Shown in pieces: positions 46,122 to 60,725 of a stretch of 64,000 bases of DNA. Below the pieces are notes generated by a model. The model was given only the letters and a program-made list of their open reading frames with translations, searched no databases and had not been told where the DNA came from. A program made the position numbers and the translations under genes. Positions within the stretch are counted from its first letter, which is position 1; each line of letters begins with the position of its first letter. The stretch lies in the NCBI RefSeq assembly GCF_016903815.1, contig NZ_CP069973.1; one strand, written 5' to 3'. The DNA is from Escherichia coli. Its GTDB lineage: Bacteria > Pseudomonadota > Gammaproteobacteria > Enterobacterales > Enterobacteriaceae.

Positions 46122-46405
46122 AGATCTCCTGCAAGGTTTTCCCTGAGCAAATTTGCCAGACAGAGTAATCCAGCAAATCGTCCGGGGAAACCTTACCTGT
46201 CGCAAACTGCGACTGATTGGTTAATTGTCGAACATTTAATCGACTGAAACGCTTCAGCTAGGATAAGCGAAACGTGGAATAAAAGGAATGTTTGTCCAGC
46301 CGAAGAAGACATTTATCTGACTCACATCACACTTTTATCCCCTTTTGTGGGAAGCTTTATTCCAGGCTGGCGTAATAATAACCCTACAATAACTGGAATA
46401 AATTG

Positions 46406-47119
46406 TCAGCTTGTGAAGTGATACCGGCCTTCTTCAGTCATCTCTACTATCAGATTGGCCTGACGGCTATTCATCAGCACACGCTCGACATTGGGGCCAT
46501 CGGTGCGGGCATAAAATGCTTCGGCTACTTGCCGCGTTAATCCTCCCGCAATTTTACGACTAATCAAGCGCTCCCGCAGAATTTGAGCAGGTGCATGAAT
46601 AAAAATAGAAAAATCGCAGAAAGATGCCAACTCCAGCCACTTTTCATCATCCAGTAACAACCAGTTTCCTTCGACGATGACGAGTGGTGCGGTAACGTGC
46701 AACGCATCTTCAACAGGATCATGCTTTTGTCGATCGTACTGCGGCCACGTACAATCCCCTTCCACGACCTGGCGCAGATTTTCCGTCAGTTTCGCAACGT
46801 CAAATGTCTCTGGTGCGCCTTTGAAGGGGCGCAATTGATGCGCATCCAGCCAGCTATTGTAATGGTGAAAACCATCCATCGGGAGCGTCTGAATAGCGGG
46901 CAGTTCCGGGTCTTGTTGCGCGAGATATTCCCAGAAGGTGGTTAGGGTTGATTTACCCGTCCCCGGCGGAGCGCAAAGAAAAACCACCGTACGCCGCTGC
47001 GGATTTACCGTCTGTAAGGCCGCCAACATGTGCAGCAACGGTTTATGTACATTTTCAATCTCTTCGTTCTGGTACTGTGCCTGTATCTTCAGCCCATTCA
47101 CCGTTAATTCAATTTTCAC
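46406..47119 (-). CDS. yggC: P-loop kinase-like protein YggC
   Basis: 237-aa ORF; Walker A CAPPGTGKST. Confidence 0.85.
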   Translation of the reverse strand: MKIELTVNGLKIQAQYQNEEIENVHKPLLHMLAALQTVNPQRRTVVFLCAPPGTGKSTLTTFWEYLAQQDPELPAIQTLPMDGFHHYNSWLDAHQLRPFKGAPETFDVAKLTENLRQVVEGDCTWPQYDRQKHDPVEDALHVTAPLVIVEGNWLLLDDEKWLELASFCDFSIFIHAPAQILRERLISRKIAGGLTRQVAEAFYARTDGPNVERVLMNSRQANLIVEMTEEGRYHFTS

Positions 47120-47625
47120 GGCGTTAATTCCTTTAAGGTGGTCGTTACTGCCAGCGTCAGCGCCGTTTTGACCATTCCGCTAAAACGCGCCTCTGACCAG
47201 ACGGCGAAATCGGCGAACTTCATCGCTTTCAACGCGTCATAGAGCGTCGCATTGCAGGTTATGCTATTGACGTTGCTGATAAAATCCCAGGTCATGTCAT
47301 CGGCAAATCCGGGCGTTTCATCCTGTTCGTTCAGGTAATGCCAGAACTGGGAAAAATGCGTGATATCGGCGTACAACCATTTATCCATTTTCCCCAACGC
47401 ATAAATCAAACGCAGTGCAACATCAATATCGTCAAGCGGGCCGCTTTGGGCGAGTAACGGCTTCACTGCATATTCCACGATCTCTTCATCGTTATCGACA
47501 AACAGCGACGGCAGAAACTGGCGTATCCCCTGGAGCAAAATGGTATGCGCAGTTTTCATAAATGAAAATAAATTGTCCTGTGCATCCAGTTGCTCAAGCA
47601 CATCATCTTCTGTCAGCGTCGCCAT
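47116..47625 (-). CDS. yggD: MtlR-like protein YggD
   Basis: 169-aa ORF MATLTEDDVLEQLDAQDNLFSFMKTAHTILLQG...; 4-nt overlap with yggC. Confidence 0.85.
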   Translation of the reverse strand: MATLTEDDVLEQLDAQDNLFSFMKTAHTILLQGIRQFLPSLFVDNDEEIVEYAVKPLLAQSGPLDDIDVALRLIYALGKMDKWLYADITHFSQFWHYLNEQDETPGFADDMTWDFISNVNSITCNATLYDALKAMKFADFAVWSEARFSGMVKTALTLAVTTTLKELTP

Positions 47626-47646
47626 TGGTCTTCCGATAGATCACCA

Positions 47647-48612
47647 TCAATGCAGGGAGTCTATTATATTACACGTTTGGTCCGCGCCGCCGATCAGTAA
47701 TGTCTGCGTCCGCACCCCATTCGCCGTCTGTTGGATACCGTTCACCAGCTCACCGCCCGTCACGCCCGTAGCGCTAAAGAGGATATCGTTCCCCCTCACC
47801 AGTTCATCGAGCGAGTACACACGGTTAACGTCAACGCCCATTGCCTTGCAACGCTTGCGCTCCTGCTCTGCAATCTGCCGATTTTCCGTGTAATCCCCTT
47901 TAGCCTGGCAAAAGTCAATCAGCTCGGCCTGCATATCCCCGCCTAATGCTTTAACGGCACAGGCAGAAATCACGCCTTCTGGCGCACCGCCGATGGTGTA
48001 CATCACATCGTAAGGATTATCCTGCCAGCAGGTCAGCACGCTGGCGGCGACATCGCCATCCGGCAGGGCAAAAACCTTCACGCCCAGCTGTGTTGCTTCC
48101 TCAATCGCGGCACTCAGGCGCGGTTTATCCAGCGTAACCATGCGCAGCTTATCCAGCGGTTTGCCTAACGCTTTCGCCACGTTGCGCAGGTTGTCCGTCA
48201 GAGGCAAAGACAGATCAATCGCGCCCGCCGCCAGCCGATTAACAACCAGCTTTTTCATATACATATCGGGCGCATGTAACAGGCTATCTCGAGGGGCGAA
48301 AGCCATGACCGCCAGCGCATTGCTCTGCCCCATCGCCACCATCCGCGTGCCTTCAATGGGATCAACCGCGATATCGACTTCTGGCCCATCGCCTTTGCCC
48401 ACCTCTTCGCCAATCCACAGCATCGGCGCATGGTCAATTTCTCCTTCGCCGATAACCACTCGTCCACGAAAAGCGACGTCGTTTAATGCCTGGCGCATCG
48501 CGGTGACCGCCAGGCCATCAATTTTATTTTTGTCGCCACATCCGGTTTGCGGCCAGGCAGCCAACGCTGCCTGTTCCGTAACGCGAAATAATGGCCACGC
48601 CAGGGACATCAT
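47647..48612 (-). CDS. yggF: Class II (GlpX-like) fructose-1,6-bisphosphatase YggF
   Basis: 321-aa ORF with GlpX-family motifs (DPIEGT). Confidence 0.88.
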   Translation of the reverse strand: MMSLAWPLFRVTEQAALAAWPQTGCGDKNKIDGLAVTAMRQALNDVAFRGRVVIGEGEIDHAPMLWIGEEVGKGDGPEVDIAVDPIEGTRMVAMGQSNALAVMAFAPRDSLLHAPDMYMKKLVVNRLAAGAIDLSLPLTDNLRNVAKALGKPLDKLRMVTLDKPRLSAAIEEATQLGVKVFALPDGDVAASVLTCWQDNPYDVMYTIGGAPEGVISACAVKALGGDMQAELIDFCQAKGDYTENRQIAEQERKRCKAMGVDVNRVYSLDELVRGNDILFSATGVTGGELVNGIQQTANGVRTQTLLIGGADQTCNIIDSLH

Positions 48613-49886
48613 TGCGCGGCCTCCCCGATATCAACGCCAAATTGTGCCAGCAGATATTTCTCGGCCTGTTCATTCCAGATGCCGTGCGTTTCCTCAACCA
48701 GCCGCGCCAACTCTTTAAACAGCGGATCGGTTTTGCCTTTTTCGGCAAAATCGGCAATGGCAGTGAGCGGCATGGTCACGCCGTTATAAATGAGTTTTTT
48801 ACCGCCAGGGATATCCGGCAGATTGAGCACGGTTTCTGGCACCGCATCCAGGCCACCGATATGGGTCACCATAAACGACGGCTGTAACTGCCCAGTGGCG
48901 CTAAGGGCAATCGCCTCTTTCATGTCGTCCGTTGAACCGCCAGATGTACCGACGACGTGCGTGCTGTTGTAATGGACGTTGTAGAAATTAAACGGCACTT
49001 TGAAGTTTTTATCCGTCGGCCCGGCAAAGAAGTTCAGACAGCCATCTTCCGCCAGTAATTCATCAGCCATCTCAACGACAGCAGGCACCGCCGCATAAAC
49101 AAAAATGTCATCGAACCCGGCATCTCCTGTCAGCGCCCGCAGCATCTGGACAGGATCGCTCATCCCTTTGGTATTCACATACACCAGCTCAATGCCTTTA
49201 CTGGCCGCCAGTTCCACCGGCAGCAGCTTCTGTACCTGCGCCAGACGTTTGTCGTCGATATCGACCACCACCACCCGCGACGGTTGTATGCCGCCGTTAA
49301 TGGCGTAATCGATAGCGCCAATGCCCATCGGACCTGCACACGCCAGCAGTGCAATATTGCCGCCAGGTTTGACGCCCATGCGATGCTCATAAACATATTG
49401 CGTGGTGTGATAATTGGCATGATAAGCACCAATAATGCAGCACATAGGCTCTGCCAGCGACGCCGCAGCAAAATAAGAGCCGTGATACGGTAATACGCAG
49501 CCCAAATTAATGGCGATTTCGGGAATAATCATATAAGTGGCATTGCCGCCAAAATATTCGTAGCTGTAGCCCGCTGAATATCCGCTTGGTAACCCCATCG
49601 CCGGTTGCAATACAAAACGCTGGCCTTTTTTATATTTGCCAGTGAGATTTTTACCCACTTCGACAATAACCCCGGCACATTCATGCCCGGTAATGACCGG
49701 ATGATTTTCTAAATCGTCGGGTACGCGTTTATGTTCACTACCGAGTAACGCCGCTTTCCAGGTCGATAAACAGACGCTGTCAGAAATTACACTCACCAGT
49801 AATTCATTATCGGTAATTTCTGGCAGTTCAAATACGCGCAGACGGACATCCCGCTTGCCATAAATAGCAGCAACTTTGGTTTTCAT
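48609..49886 (-). CDS. yggP: Zn-dependent medium-chain dehydrogenase YggP (putative sugar-phosphate dehydrogenase)
   Basis: 425-aa ORF; MDR-family Zn-binding region (GHECAG), Rossmann motif; 4-nt overlap with yggF. Confidence 0.85.
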   Translation of the reverse strand: MKTKVAAIYGKRDVRLRVFELPEITDNELLVSVISDSVCLSTWKAALLGSEHKRVPDDLENHPVITGHECAGVIVEVGKNLTGKYKKGQRFVLQPAMGLPSGYSAGYSYEYFGGNATYMIIPEIAINLGCVLPYHGSYFAAASLAEPMCCIIGAYHANYHTTQYVYEHRMGVKPGGNIALLACAGPMGIGAIDYAINGGIQPSRVVVVDIDDKRLAQVQKLLPVELAASKGIELVYVNTKGMSDPVQMLRALTGDAGFDDIFVYAAVPAVVEMADELLAEDGCLNFFAGPTDKNFKVPFNFYNVHYNSTHVVGTSGGSTDDMKEAIALSATGQLQPSFMVTHIGGLDAVPETVLNLPDIPGGKKLIYNGVTMPLTAIADFAEKGKTDPLFKELARLVEETHGIWNEQAEKYLLAQFGVDIGEAAQ

Positions 49887-49900
49887 TTTTACCTCTGTAA

Positions 49901-51289
49901 TCAGTGTTTATGTTCGGCGGTTAATTGATTAAATAAAGTGTCGAGTTTTGGATCGCCAATATAGTTATTAATCAATATCAGTGGTTTATCCGTCACACGT
50001 TTCACGCGCCCTTCCAGACTGGCATGAGTAACGACGATATCCGCATCCGCAGGCACGTTTTCTATGGCGTAATGTTTTACTTCAATTGCCAGCCCCGCTT
50101 TTTCCAGGCGTTTACGGAAGGTGGTCGCGCCCATCGCACTGGAGCCCATCCCCGCATCGCAAACAAAGGCGATACGCTTAACCCTGCTTAACGAGAATGC
50201 ACCCTCTTGTTTCATCGCCTTAACCGCATTGGCTGACTGAGCAAACTCATCTTCGCTCTCCGTTTCCACCGTTTTTTCCATCTTCAGTATCAGCGAAGTA
50301 ATAGCAAAGGACACCAGGGTACCTACCGTAACACCGGCAATTGTCGCCAGGAACGAGCCTTTCGGCGTCAGTGCCAGGTAAGCAAAGATAGACCCCGGAC
50401 TTGGGCCAGCCACCAGACCACCGTCCAGTAAGTTAAACATCCAGGTGCCAGACATACCGCCCGCAATCATGGCAATAATGGTCAGCGGCTTCATCAGCAC
50501 ATACGGGAAATACAGTTCGTGGATCCCACCGAGGAAGTGAATAATCATCGCCCCGGGCGCAGAACGTTTACTCATCCCTTTACCAAACAAGGTAAACGCC
50601 AGCAGCAGCCCCAGGCCCGGACCTGGGTTAGAGGCCACCATAAAGAAGATGGATTTACCGTTAACCGAAGCCTGTTGCATTCCCAGCGGATAATAGACGC
50701 CCTGATCGATCGCATTATTGAGGAAAAGCACTTTCGCCGGTTCATTGATGACTGACAACAATGGCAGATAACCCGCATGTACCAGCGCCTCAATACACTC
50801 TTTGACGAAAGTATTGGCAATTAACACCGCCGGGCCGATCACTTCAAAACCCAGCAGACAAAGGAGCATCCCCGCGATACCTAATGAGAAGTTATTGATA
50901 ACCATCTCAAAACCAGCAGGTATGCGTTTTTCCAGTGCCTTATCAACATATTTTATGACCAGCCCACCGAGCGGCCCCATAATCATTGAGCCAAGGAACA
51001 TCGGGATCTCTGCGCCGACGATCACACCAATAGTACCTATTCCGCCCATGACCGCGCCGCGTTTACCGCCGACCAGATGACCACCGGTAGAACCAATCAT
51101 CACGGGCAATAAATAGGTAATCATCGGGCCGACAATTTTGGCGAAATGTTCGTTAGGCAGCCAACCGGTGGGAATAAATAACGCAGTAATAAAACCCCAG
51201 GCAATAAAAGCACCAATATTGGGGATGACCATTGCAGTCAAAAAGCCCCCAAAAGCCAGGACCTTTGCACGAGCAGACTTGTTTTCCAT
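49901..51289 (-). CDS. cmtA: PTS mannitol-family EIICB component CmtA (cryptic)
   Basis: 462-aa polytopic membrane ORF with C-terminal EIIB domain containing conserved Cys (VCDAGMGSS). Confidence 0.9.
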   Translation of the reverse strand: MENKSARAKVLAFGGFLTAMVIPNIGAFIAWGFITALFIPTGWLPNEHFAKIVGPMITYLLPVMIGSTGGHLVGGKRGAVMGGIGTIGVIVGAEIPMFLGSMIMGPLGGLVIKYVDKALEKRIPAGFEMVINNFSLGIAGMLLCLLGFEVIGPAVLIANTFVKECIEALVHAGYLPLLSVINEPAKVLFLNNAIDQGVYYPLGMQQASVNGKSIFFMVASNPGPGLGLLLAFTLFGKGMSKRSAPGAMIIHFLGGIHELYFPYVLMKPLTIIAMIAGGMSGTWMFNLLDGGLVAGPSPGSIFAYLALTPKGSFLATIAGVTVGTLVSFAITSLILKMEKTVETESEDEFAQSANAVKAMKQEGAFSLSRVKRIAFVCDAGMGSSAMGATTFRKRLEKAGLAIEVKHYAIENVPADADIVVTHASLEGRVKRVTDKPLILINNYIGDPKLDTLFNQLTAEHKH

Positions 51290-51316
51290 AATATTATCCT
51301 GTAGAGGAGAGAGTAA

Positions 51317-51760
51317 TTATCCGCGGCTGATAATGTCCGCTAATTGTTTTTCTGATGATGCTGTTAAGAGTTGTTCGAGTATTTCTTCTTCGCACAGTAA
51401 TTCACTTAACGCCTGAATAGCGCCAATGTGCGAATCGGCATCGGCAGCAGAGAGTCCGATGAGTAATTTAATTGGTTCGTCATTCCCCGGAAAATAAACA
51501 CCTTGTTCAAGTAATGTCAAAGACATCCCGGTTTTAAGCGCCCCACATTCCGGTCGCGCATGAGGCATTGCCACGCCTGGTGCGAGAATATAATAAGGGC
51601 CATTGTTAATGGTGGAATCTTTAATTGCCTGAATGTAATTCTCGCTGATATAGTTTTTATCCAGCAATGATACCATCGAGAAATCGATAGCTTCCTGCCA
51701 ATCTTTTGCTGAATGTATAACTGAGATTGATGATTCTGGAAAATAATCACTAAGCCGCAT
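51317..51760 (-). CDS. cmtB: PTS mannitol-family EIIA component CmtB (cryptic)
   Basis: 147-aa ORF with EIIA-Mtl phospho-His region (GVAMPHARP). Confidence 0.9.
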   Translation of the reverse strand: MRLSDYFPESSISVIHSAKDWQEAIDFSMVSLLDKNYISENYIQAIKDSTINNGPYYILAPGVAMPHARPECGALKTGMSLTLLEQGVYFPGNDEPIKLLIGLSAADADSHIGAIQALSELLCEEEILEQLLTASSEKQLADIISRG

Positions 51761-52032
51761 AAATTATCCTTATTTTATTTTTAGGGTACCGTCCGGCGGT
51801 AAAAATAAAATACTCGTGCGGTTTAATGAAAGCAATTGAGCAGGGAAACCGGTGTTTTGAAAACAGTTAATTATTAATTTCTTATATAACATTGAGTTAT
51901 AGTTATAACAACAAATGTCAATACGCATATCGTGATGCATATTACATAATTGATATTTATTGCATATAAATATTTGTGATCTACAACACGCTTTATCTAT
52001 TGCTTGTCCGCAAACGGACATATCAAGGTAAT

Positions 52033-52060
52033 AAAAAAGGTCGCCGAAGCGACCTTTTTA
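52033..52060 (-). terminator. Intrinsic terminator of tktA
   Basis: Minus strand reads hairpin GGTCGCTTCGGCGACC followed by TTTTTTAT. Confidence 0.75.
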
Positions 52061-52073
52061 CCCGAAATGCTAA

Positions 52074-60342: not shown

Positions 60343-60725
60343 CCTCACCGCGGTGGATAGGCATTCACGCCGCATCCGGCAAAAAGCTGCCCGCACAATA
60401 ACATCATTCTTCCTCAACACGTTTTATCGCAAATTATCATCACTACTGAAACCGATTACACCAATAACACCAGCCAAATATTTGTAATATTTTCATATTA
60501 TTATTCAGTTTTCACAGTTGTTACATTTCTTTTCAGTAAAGTCTTAATTGCAGATAACAGCGTTTAATCTATGATGATATAACTCAATTATTTTCATGCA
60601 CTTAAACCATAACTAAGATAAATGTTAGTGTAAGCGATTACACTGATGTGATTTGCTTCACATCTTTTTACGTCGTACTCACCTATCTTAATTCACAATA
60701 AAAAATAACCATATTGGAGGGCATC

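Follow-up and report, generated by a model that had tools for sequence, protein, structure and literature searches.

The window analysed here, a stretch of 64,000 nucleotides from the Escherichia coli contig NZ_CP069973.1, contains a compact block of six minus-strand genes, cmtB-cmtA-yggP-yggF-yggD(fumE)-yggC (46406-51760), a locus long known and annotated, and historically named 'cryptic mannitol' since the 1990s. Our interpretation, which we hold tentatively and at somewhat less than an even chance, is that the block constitutes one CRP-activated catabolic module for a mannitol-like alditol, in which a phosphotransferase system (PTS) permease, the dehydrogenase YggP, the kinase YggC and, finally, the phosphatase YggF or an aldolase would act in succession. 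The novelty lies in this pathway logic, which varies the theme of the mtl, gat, srl and sor operons for PTS-imported alditols by combining a dehydrogenase of the SorE type with a P-loop kinase and a modular phosphatase. Few multi-gene carbohydrate loci of the best-studied bacterium still lack an assigned function, and the cluster is among the last of them, a question some 30 years old that is now open to specific assays.

From its upstream end, the block comprises cmtB (51317-51760), for a fructose/mannitol-type PTS enzyme IIA (EIIA) of 147 aa; cmtA (49901-51289), for a mannitol-family permease (EIICB) of 462 aa; yggP (48609-49886), for a Zn-dependent medium-chain dehydrogenase of 425 aa, paralogous to SorE; yggF (47647-48612), for a 321-aa paralogue of the class II, or GlpX-type, fructose/sedoheptulose bisphosphatases; yggD, or fumE (47116-47625), for a MtlR-fold protein of 169 aa; and yggC (46406-47119), with a GTG start, for a P-loop small-molecule kinase of 237 aa with the PanK/Udk/PRK fold. 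Open reading frame (ORF) calls give intergenic spacings of 27, 14, -4, 21 and -4 nt in that order, the two start/stop overlaps of 4 nt being ATGA for yggP/yggF and GTGA for yggD/yggC. A preliminary description of this DNA, made from its letters, was thus exact as to the six co-directional genes with their overlaps and short gaps, and its domain calls agree with Pfam and NCBIfam for all six proteins. The RefSeq annotation likewise shows these six genes, flanked by tkt and epd-pgk-fbaA; the block is 99.7% identical to that of K-12, and 5386 of 5426 complete E. coli genomes (99%) retain 80% or more of it. A sequence scan found no convincing intrinsic terminator inside the block or after yggC, and read-through towards epd is possible because of the latter. 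Packing, translational coupling and synteny all suggest that the six genes are co-transcribed.

Searching through YggP orthologues (63–99% identity), which occur in many Enterobacterales, Vibrionaceae and Clostridia, we tabulated 80 loci from these groups. Every complete locus contains EIIA, EIICB, YggP and YggC, an invariant core that persists despite differences in gene order and regulator, and EIICB is a core gene throughout the 80 loci. There are four architectures. In about 50 loci of the Enterobacterales the genes follow the E. coli order (EIIA-EIICB-YggP-GlpX type-MtlR like-YggC); Rahnella and Budvicia have this order minus the phosphatase; the approximately 21 loci of the Vibrionaceae read EIIA-EIICB-YggP-MtlR like-YggC and then a YcdX-family hydrolase with a PHP domain (NF006702, 357 bits); and the approximately 10 clostridial loci read EIIA-YggC-EIICB-YggP beside an Mga/HTH-PRD-EIIA regulator, with neither MtlR-like gene nor phosphatase. 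The EIIA gene leads the cluster in all proteobacterial loci. The arrangement is not due to chance, a conclusion that comes from this conservation across genomes and not from statistics within the window. Simple sigma-70 and terminator scans gave no enrichment over shuffled sequence (7 versus 9.6 expected, and 6 versus 7.0, respectively), and the former failed to pick up the conserved cmtB promoter. A gene for a pyrophosphate-dependent phosphofructokinase (PPi-PFK) lies upstream of the clostridial cluster in two lineages only, and was on that account rejected as a member of the module.

Purifying selection acts on each of the six E. coli genes, with ratios of nonsynonymous to synonymous substitution rates (dN/dS) of 0.03-0.17 in comparisons with unsaturated dS (partners were E. 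albertii, E. whittamii, Citrobacter, Salmonella diarizonae and Raoultella); therefore, 'cryptic' cannot mean decaying. The cassette is also mobile. It sits in the tktA-epd gap in Enterobacteriaceae, a site that also accepts an islet for an energy-coupling factor (ECF) transporter; within the men operon in Hafnia; and next to the canonical mtlA-mtlD-mtlR locus in most Rahnella. Co-travel across phyla, purifying selection and the lack of a visible internal terminator uphold and strengthen the initial view of a compact PTS and sugar-phosphate catabolic unit.

The permease gives an indication of what the cluster might handle. CmtB matches PF00359 (102.9 bits) and the equivalog NF007358 (326 bits), and carries GVAMPHARPE, with the active-site motif GVAMPH; CmtA matches PF02378 (99 bits) and PF02302 (49.9 bits), and contains VCDAGMGSSAMG and the IIB cysteine motif VCDAGMGSS. 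We take these phosphoryl-transfer motifs to correspond to the active-site motifs of MtlA. Against the mannitol models, CmtA scores 475.7 with TIGR00851 (mtlA), just above the cut-off of 468.4, and 588.5 with PRK15083, just below the cut-off of 589; this borderline mannitol-subfamily EIIC score would point to an alditol substrate. The cluster resembles mtlADR in its probable mannitol-subfamily permease, its MtlR-fold protein and its CRP-dependent expression; however, its EIIA is a separate protein, it has a SorE-family Zn-dependent medium-chain dehydrogenase/reductase (MDR, with ADH_N/ADH_zinc_N domains) in place of MtlD, and it adds a P-loop kinase and a bisphosphatase. The two systems are not redundant, because Rahnella has both side by side. 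As to the EIIA itself, that of Aliivibrio fischeri (L002:6962-7540) is of 192 aa, with about 45 residues preceding the PTS_EIIA_2 domain (50-191), as opposed to 147 aa in E. coli; other Vibrionaceae ORF calls are of approximately 147-190 aa, and the extension may hinge on the choice of start codon.

YggP matches the Pfam families ADH_N and ADH_zinc_N and no specific curated NCBIfam family, and we found no close solved structure for it (best PDB E-value, 1e-8). It aligns with CFT073 SorE from end to end (416 residues), the unusual C-terminal extension included, at 45% identity (E 1e-132), and shares only 24% with GatD. Residues C39, H68, E69 and E146, the dinucleotide-binding motif GPMG (G185-P-M-G188) and D209 are invariant; from what is known of the MDR family, we take the first four to be Zn ligands and GPMG with D209 to form the NAD site, and D209, which follows the second beta-strand, makes NAD a likelier cofactor than NADP. 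The dN/dS of yggP is 0.025-0.13. SorE acts beside the phosphorylated carbon of its substrate, and MtlD, SrlD and GatD act at the far end. The reaction of SorE, from L-sorbose-1-phosphate to D-glucitol-6-phosphate, has a genetically validated role (PMC12817954). By this homology, we propose YggP as a predicted alditol-1-phosphate 2-dehydrogenase that forms a ketose-1-phosphate.

Comparison with whole operons qualifies the likeness. The CFT073 sor operon (sorCDFBAME) and the cmt cluster share full-length paralogues, SorE and YggP, both linked to a PTS and acting on sugar phosphates. Unlike the cmt cluster, the sor operon encodes a mannose-type IIA/IIB/IIC/IID PTS, a short-chain dehydrogenase/reductase (SDR) oxidoreductase and the SorC sugar-binding regulator, with neither kinase nor phosphatase; and SorE reduces a ketose-1-phosphate that its PTS has produced, whereas the reaction proposed for YggP is an oxidation with the ketose-1-phosphate as its product. 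The gatYZABCD operon offers a similar sequence of events: the PTS takes up an alditol, a Zn-MDR alditol-phosphate dehydrogenase yields a ketose phosphate, and a kinase makes from it the bisphosphate on which an aldolase acts. Its PTS, however, belongs to a different family, and the operon includes genes for an aldolase (GatY/GatZ) but none for a kinase or a phosphatase. The 671-aa product of the E. coli protein cluster P0014 joins a PTS_EIIC domain to YggP, and is either a true cmtA-yggP fusion, through loss of the stop codon and the 14-nt gap, or an annotation artefact.

YggC belongs to the equivalog NF006742 (PRK09270; 504 bits) and is distant kin of PanK and Udk, with scores far below the cut-offs for panK (51 versus 235) and udk (37 versus 180). 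It matches the PDB entry 3c8u, labelled 'fructokinase', with an E-value of 5e-21, and PanK with one of 1e-10. The APPGxGKST P-loop (Walker A), DGFH, KGxPETFD, EGN and, with the lid arginines, R184/R188/K189 are invariant in ten orthologues from three phyla, and YggC has all the motifs of an active small-molecule kinase. RefSeq names it 'nucleoside/nucleotide kinase family protein', and in 2011 it was predicted to be a 'sugar/polyol kinase', with work 'in progress'. Its sole studied relative would be FrcK from Sinorhizobium meliloti, which we infer to be of the same kinase family from the label of 3c8u and the published description of FrcK. FrcK (frcBCAK) is linked to fructose, mannitol and sorbitol utilisation. 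YggC is linked to a PTS and always occurs with YggP. In this context, we propose YggC as a predicted ketose-1-phosphate omega-kinase. The proposed chemistry equals that of FruK and TagK in the fruBKA and D-tagatose PTS systems, which convert a ketose-1-phosphate and ATP to the ketose-1,6-bisphosphate; yet FruK and TagK are PfkB-family enzymes with a ribokinase fold, and YggC is a P-loop protein of the PanK/Udk/PRK fold. A set of basic residues considered as specific to PTS-linked YggC, and as a possible site for a phosphorylated substrate, was discarded: K100 belongs to a motif found across the PanK family and R130 is shared with 3c8u.

YggF scores 588 bits with the equivalog TIGR00330 (cut-off 259.3) and 405.5 bits with PF03320 (FBPase_glpX); class II enzymes are fructose/sedoheptulose bisphosphatases (FBPases/SBPases), and those of the GlpX type remove the C1 phosphate of ketose bisphosphates specifically. 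In the accounts given in PMC8719807 and PMC3105977, FBPase activity of YggF was detected in vitro (Brown et al. 2009, cited therein); a yggF deletion shows a mild defect in glycerol fermentation (PMC8719807), and yggF mRNA was found to increase approximately 31-fold in nutrient-poor co-culture. The Vibrionaceae lack YggF, and in them the 3'-most gene of the cluster encodes the YcdX/PHP hydrolase instead. This is a non-orthologous displacement, in which two unrelated families have each provided the accessory phosphatase. Because yggF is coupled to yggP and because an unrelated PHP hydrolase stands in for it in Vibrionaceae, a phosphatase is suggested to be a step of the pathway, and we propose YggF as the predicted C1 phosphatase of its ketose bisphosphate. 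The glpFKX operon likewise includes a GlpX-type bisphosphatase in a CRP-controlled catabolic operon, but there the phosphatase serves gluconeogenesis from trioses, whereas yggF is coupled translationally to a dehydrogenase gene.

The only Pfam match of YggD is PF05068 (MtlR), with 178.7 bits over residues 5-167; Pfam detects no fumarase domain (Fumerase/Fumerase_C or Lyase_1) in it. It scores 87 bits with the MltR/MtlR subfamily model NF008234, below the cut-off of 149, and has an equivalog of its own, NF007455. Among solved structures it matches a near-identical chain, PDB 3C8G (E 2.4e-108), which according to the literature is the Shigella orthologue, as well as 6KCR (MtlR; E 9e-13) and 3BRJ (E 3e-8). 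RefSeq now names the gene fumE, 'fumarase E', and PMC8464067, with reference to a metabolomics screen done in vitro, describes the protein as 'verified as fumarase E'. The same work found no ChIP-exo (chromatin immunoprecipitation with exonuclease) peaks for YggD, i.e. no DNA binding (PMC8464067). YggD is present in all proteobacterial clusters and a PRD/Mga-type regulator takes its place in Clostridia, the two being mutually exclusive, which argues for a regulatory physiological role tied to the cmt PTS. It would probably act through protein contacts, because of the lack of DNA binding in ChIP-exo. Genome context argues that fumarase is not its physiological role, and the 'fumarase E' label probably reflects a weak in vitro activity.

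The control region lies in the spacer of 313 bp (51761-52073) between cmtB and the stop codon of tktA; it had been described as AT-rich, which its GC content, dipping to 0.32, bears out. Read from the sequence, the tktA intrinsic terminator (52033-52059, minus strand) consists of an A-run, a GGTCGC-TTCG-GCGACC hairpin and a T-run. In an alignment of the spacer, this hairpin and the T-run upstream of cmtB are kept in 15 genera, and the terminator would isolate the cluster from tktA transcription. A distal CRP-like box, identified by pattern match and phylogenetic footprint, occupies 51975-51990 on the minus strand and reads CGTGTTGTAGATCACA in E. coli and, near-perfectly, TGTGATCTGAATCACA in other genera; a second one, TGTAATATGCATCACG (51931-51946, minus strand), lies 44 bp from the first and is half-conserved, the ATCAC half-site being kept. 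The proposed cmtB promoter (51800-51835, minus strand) has a -35 element TTGCTT (51830-51835), a 17-nt spacer and a -10 element TATTTT (51807-51812), the latter within an invariant block of 17 nt, CGAGTATTTTATTTTTA (51800-51816); both hexamers and this block are kept across genera of Enterobacteriaceae, and their conservation allows a putative transcription start to be placed. The CRP boxes would be about 140 and 180 bp upstream of that start, and an extra activator or a second promoter may be involved, because simple activation of class I or II would need them closer. The CRP pattern occurs in the whole window at chance frequency (30 versus 27), and the CRP and promoter sites therefore rest on cross-genus conservation and on published binding.

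The preliminary description had taken neither the substrate nor the regulation of the cluster to be established. The first part stands, since we found no documented substrate in the RefSeq and NCBIfam names of June 2026, which are still generic, or in the literature searched. The second does not: cAMP-CRP binds the cmtB promoter in genomic SELEX (systematic evolution of ligands by exponential enrichment), promoter activity is lost in a crp mutant (PMC3105977), and CRP control was confirmed in 2025 with a PcmtA-gfp fusion (PMC12412646). Among 198 Biolog compounds, uridine and other nucleosides were the best inducers of PcmtA, and glucose gave the lowest activity (PMC12412646). A candidate hairpin in the leader, downstream of the -10 block and ahead of the Shine-Dalgarno sequence, showed apparent covariation in a first alignment, and was dropped after failing over 30 distinct leaders; an Rfam search of the cmtB leader gave no match. 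Elsewhere, the spacer between yggC and epd contains a Cra-like box, ACTGAAACGCTTCAGC (46243-46258), the only Cra box found, and a CRP-like box with one mismatch (46316-46331), both of which presumably serve the epd-pgk-fbaA promoter. The sole zero-mismatch match to the CRP consensus in the window, TGTGATTTGCTTCACA, is at 60647-60662. Inside yggP, an intragenic sigma-54 motif, CTGGCGGCAATATTGCA (49350-49366, minus strand), coincides exactly with the ChIP site IS35 of PMC4591121, and there is no enhancer-binding protein gene near it.

The neighbours of the cluster give a hint of where its product might go. In Enterobacteriaceae, tktA is upstream at approximately 300 bp; in Vibrio hepatarius, a Photobacterium and a metagenome-assembled genome of the Vibrionaceae (a group that includes L061:3588-6634), transketolase and transaldolase genes are upstream at 450-540 bp; in V. 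mediterranei (L072:12369-14372), a transketolase gene is 16 bp downstream of the last cluster gene; and in Rahnella laticis (L047:12566-15800), genes for transketolase and a FbaA-like aldolase are downstream. Transketolase adjacency thus occurs in about four of approximately 20 distinct contexts, which look independent, and this frequency would be far above chance. Part of it could stem from recombination that uses the conserved tkt gene as an anchor. The adjacent transketolases share 76-99% identity with E. coli TktA and do not stand out as specialised paralogues. A functional link, if there is one, would hint at a product fed into the non-oxidative pentose phosphate pathway, and at a C5 or C7 alditol over a hexitol. 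Adjacency to transketolase, transaldolase and aldolase genes fits either a bisphosphate or a pentose-phosphate-pathway product.

From these elements, we infer the following route. CmtB and CmtA would import an alditol and phosphorylate its terminal carbon, to yield an alditol-1-phosphate. YggP, with the geometry of SorE run oxidatively, would then oxidise C2 with NAD+ to a ketose-1-phosphate, whose free distal hydroxyl YggC would phosphorylate with ATP to a ketose-1,omega-bisphosphate: fructose-1,6-bisphosphate from a hexitol, sedoheptulose-1,7-bisphosphate from a heptitol or a pentulose-1,5-bisphosphate from a pentitol. YggF might next strip the C1 phosphate to leave a ketose-omega-phosphate (fructose-6-phosphate (F6P), sedoheptulose-7-phosphate, or ribulose-5-phosphate/xylulose-5-phosphate); alternatively, a class II aldolase could cleave the bisphosphate. 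YggD, as a MtlR-type regulator, would sense the state of the PTS by protein contacts. Ketose-1-phosphates are not central metabolites and, with the exception of fructose-1-phosphate, are not known to have a metabolic outlet; the kinase would always accompany YggP because the ketose-1-phosphate would need one, and the sor operon could do without a kinase because the SorE reaction runs reductively. The scheme would also account for the coupling of yggP and yggF, for the unrelated phosphatase of Vibrio, and for the dispensability of the phosphatase wherever a housekeeping FBPase or aldolase serves.

A stricter form of this route, which we consider possible although rather unlikely, is a 'phosphate-transposition', not described before, by YggP, YggC and a phosphatase, either YggF or the PHP hydrolase, leading from alditol-1-phosphate through the ketose-1-phosphate and ketose-1,omega-bisphosphate to the ketose-omega-phosphate, with, as its substrate, a C5 or C7 alditol that the standard phenotype arrays do not include. 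As a speculation, volemitol (D-glycero-D-manno-heptitol), from brown algae and plants, would fit every gene, by way of sedoheptulose-1-phosphate and sedoheptulose-1,7-bisphosphate; volemitol is mannitol-like at C1-C5. Were this stricter form true, it would provide the first biochemical function for the FrcK/YggC family and overturn the 'fumarase E' label of YggD.

Several observations weigh against an alditol module of the kind proposed. An identity of 45% leaves room for YggP to depart from SorE in its regiochemistry, and we found no enzyme activity of YggP or YggC reported in the literature searched. Residue conservation in YggC reveals no phosphate-binding signature relative to 3c8u and PanK, and does not tell a phosphorylated substrate apart from an unphosphorylated one. 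FrcK, a P-loop NTPase with a pantothenate-kinase match, is not a fructokinase and has no known substrate (PMC10433430); it is encoded beside an ABC (ATP-binding cassette) transporter, where no ketose-1-phosphate arises, and may influence transport or regulation (PMC10433430). A kinase and a phosphatase both acting at C1 would make a futile pair, so that the model needs them to act at opposite ends; and YggF is accessory, with a phosphatase not essential to the core, since it is absent from the Rahnella, Budvicia and clostridial loci. We know of no growth phenotype for the cluster in K-12. Among the 198 Biolog compounds, in a panel said to include the common polyols, there was no sugar-specific inducer of PcmtA (PMC12412646), and we found no Cra (FruR) box at the cmtB promoter, which would have favoured a fructose-1-phosphate intermediate. 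Finally, one paper gives yggDC as a separate unit, and this listing, together with the sigma-54 site within yggP, leaves room for sub-operonic transcription.

Three other arrangements of the same enzymes deserve consideration. In one, which we judge unlikely, YggP would oxidise the far end of the alditol phosphate to a ketose-6-phosphate other than F6P (such as tagatose-6-phosphate or psicose-6-phosphate), YggC would be a ketose-6-phosphate 1-kinase, analogous to phosphoribulokinase or tagatose-6-phosphate kinase, and the aldolase that cleaves the bisphosphate would be encoded elsewhere, with YggF merely supplying F6P for biosynthesis, as GlpX does in glpFKX. The gat operon employs its MDR dehydrogenase in this way, and YggC homologues match Pfam PRK (phosphoribulokinase/uridine kinase), a family with a ketose-phosphate 1-kinase; moreover, the PPi-PFK gene upstream in two clostridial lineages would suit it, as would the genes next to the cluster in Garciella (L064:943-3801), where a second MDR dehydrogenase, a PfkB kinase and a class II aldolase of 284 aa are encoded upstream of the PRD regulator and convergent with it, and may represent either a linked tagatose-type branch or a separate operon. 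Nevertheless, YggP is far nearer to SorE than to GatD, no aldolase belongs to the conserved core, and a kinase and a GlpX-type phosphatase at the same C1 would oppose each other.

The kinship with SorE, and the naming of YggP orthologues as 'L-sorbose 1-phosphate reductase' in several sources, can also be read in the opposite direction: the PTS would make a ketose-1-phosphate from a rare hexulose or heptulose, YggP would reduce it as SorE does, and outside enzymes would finish the job. The permeases of the fructose/mannitol superfamily do include ketose transporters; still, we regard this route as improbable, because CmtA scores, if narrowly, as a mannitol-subfamily EIIC, which would point to an alditol, because the cluster contains no second dehydrogenase equivalent to the SDR oxidoreductase of the sor operon, and because the invariant kinase YggC would be left without an obvious role.

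A regulatory function of YggC, together with YggD, would remove that kinase from the catabolic route altogether. Here YggC would modulate the transporter or the regulator, as suggested for FrcK, and catabolism would consist of the PTS and YggP, with a normal intermediate as product. The frcK mutant shows approximately 50% lower fructose uptake and derepressed mannitol transport (PMC10433430), although FrcK is not a fructokinase, and yggD and yggC are coupled translationally and are neighbours in all proteobacterial loci. We give this a low probability: Clostridia keep YggC without YggD, between the EIIA and EIICB genes, the fold and motifs of YggC are those of small-molecule kinases (PanK, Udk, PRK), and the recurrent phosphatase would go unexplained. 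Lastly, that there is no pathway, only a cryptic relic or chance neighbours (a silent duplicate of the mannitol PTS, a spare FBPase, a minor fumarase and a nucleoside kinase), could draw on the 'cryptic mannitol' name, the current annotations of YggD and YggC, the FBPase activity and mild glycerol-fermentation phenotype of YggF and the lack of a specific inducer, but is very improbable and largely refuted by the synteny from Enterobacterales to Clostridia, the purifying selection on all six genes, the occurrence of the cassette at unrelated sites (the Hafnia men operon and beside the Rahnella mtlADR) and the lack of a fumarase domain in YggD.

Solving the cluster would assign a function to a kinase family that is found from rhizobia to plants, would test whether the 'fumarase E' annotation is physiologically meaningful, and could possibly show the use of an overlooked dietary or algal polyol by gut or marine bacteria. 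Its true inducer is also of some practical interest, because CmtA affects aminoglycoside uptake and deletion of cmtA raises the minimum inhibitory concentration of tobramycin (PMC12412646).

The surroundings of the cluster are variable in their own right, the tktA-epd gap being a hot spot for insertions. The islet that occupies it in Salmonella diarizonae, Buttiauxella and Superficieibacter (loci L019:12450-15084, L040:3628-6690 and L013) encodes the ECF-type transporter, with two ABC ATPases, a CbiQ component and an S component; those of Buttiauxella and Superficieibacter also encode a PCC-domain protein. The tktA-cmtB spacer is likewise polymorphic: approximately 1816 of the 5426 E. coli genomes, as well as E. 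albertii and E. whittamii, have a form of about 1.5 kb (L006:5621-7126) with a prohibitin/SPFH gene of 305 aa on the opposite strand and repeats like the repetitive extragenic palindromic (REP) type, whereas the window has the short form of 313 bp. The 305-aa ORF was considered as a lost regulator and ruled out, its product being a prohibitin/SPFH protein. Within Escherichia (L006-L011), the genes at the ends of the cluster vary most, with amino acid identities of 86-100% for cmtB and 82-92% for yggC versus 95-99% for the four middle genes; dS is 0.8-1.2 for yggC, around 0.3 for the middle genes and just 0.08-0.11 for yggD. This mosaic divergence suggests recombination or allele replacement at the cluster ends.

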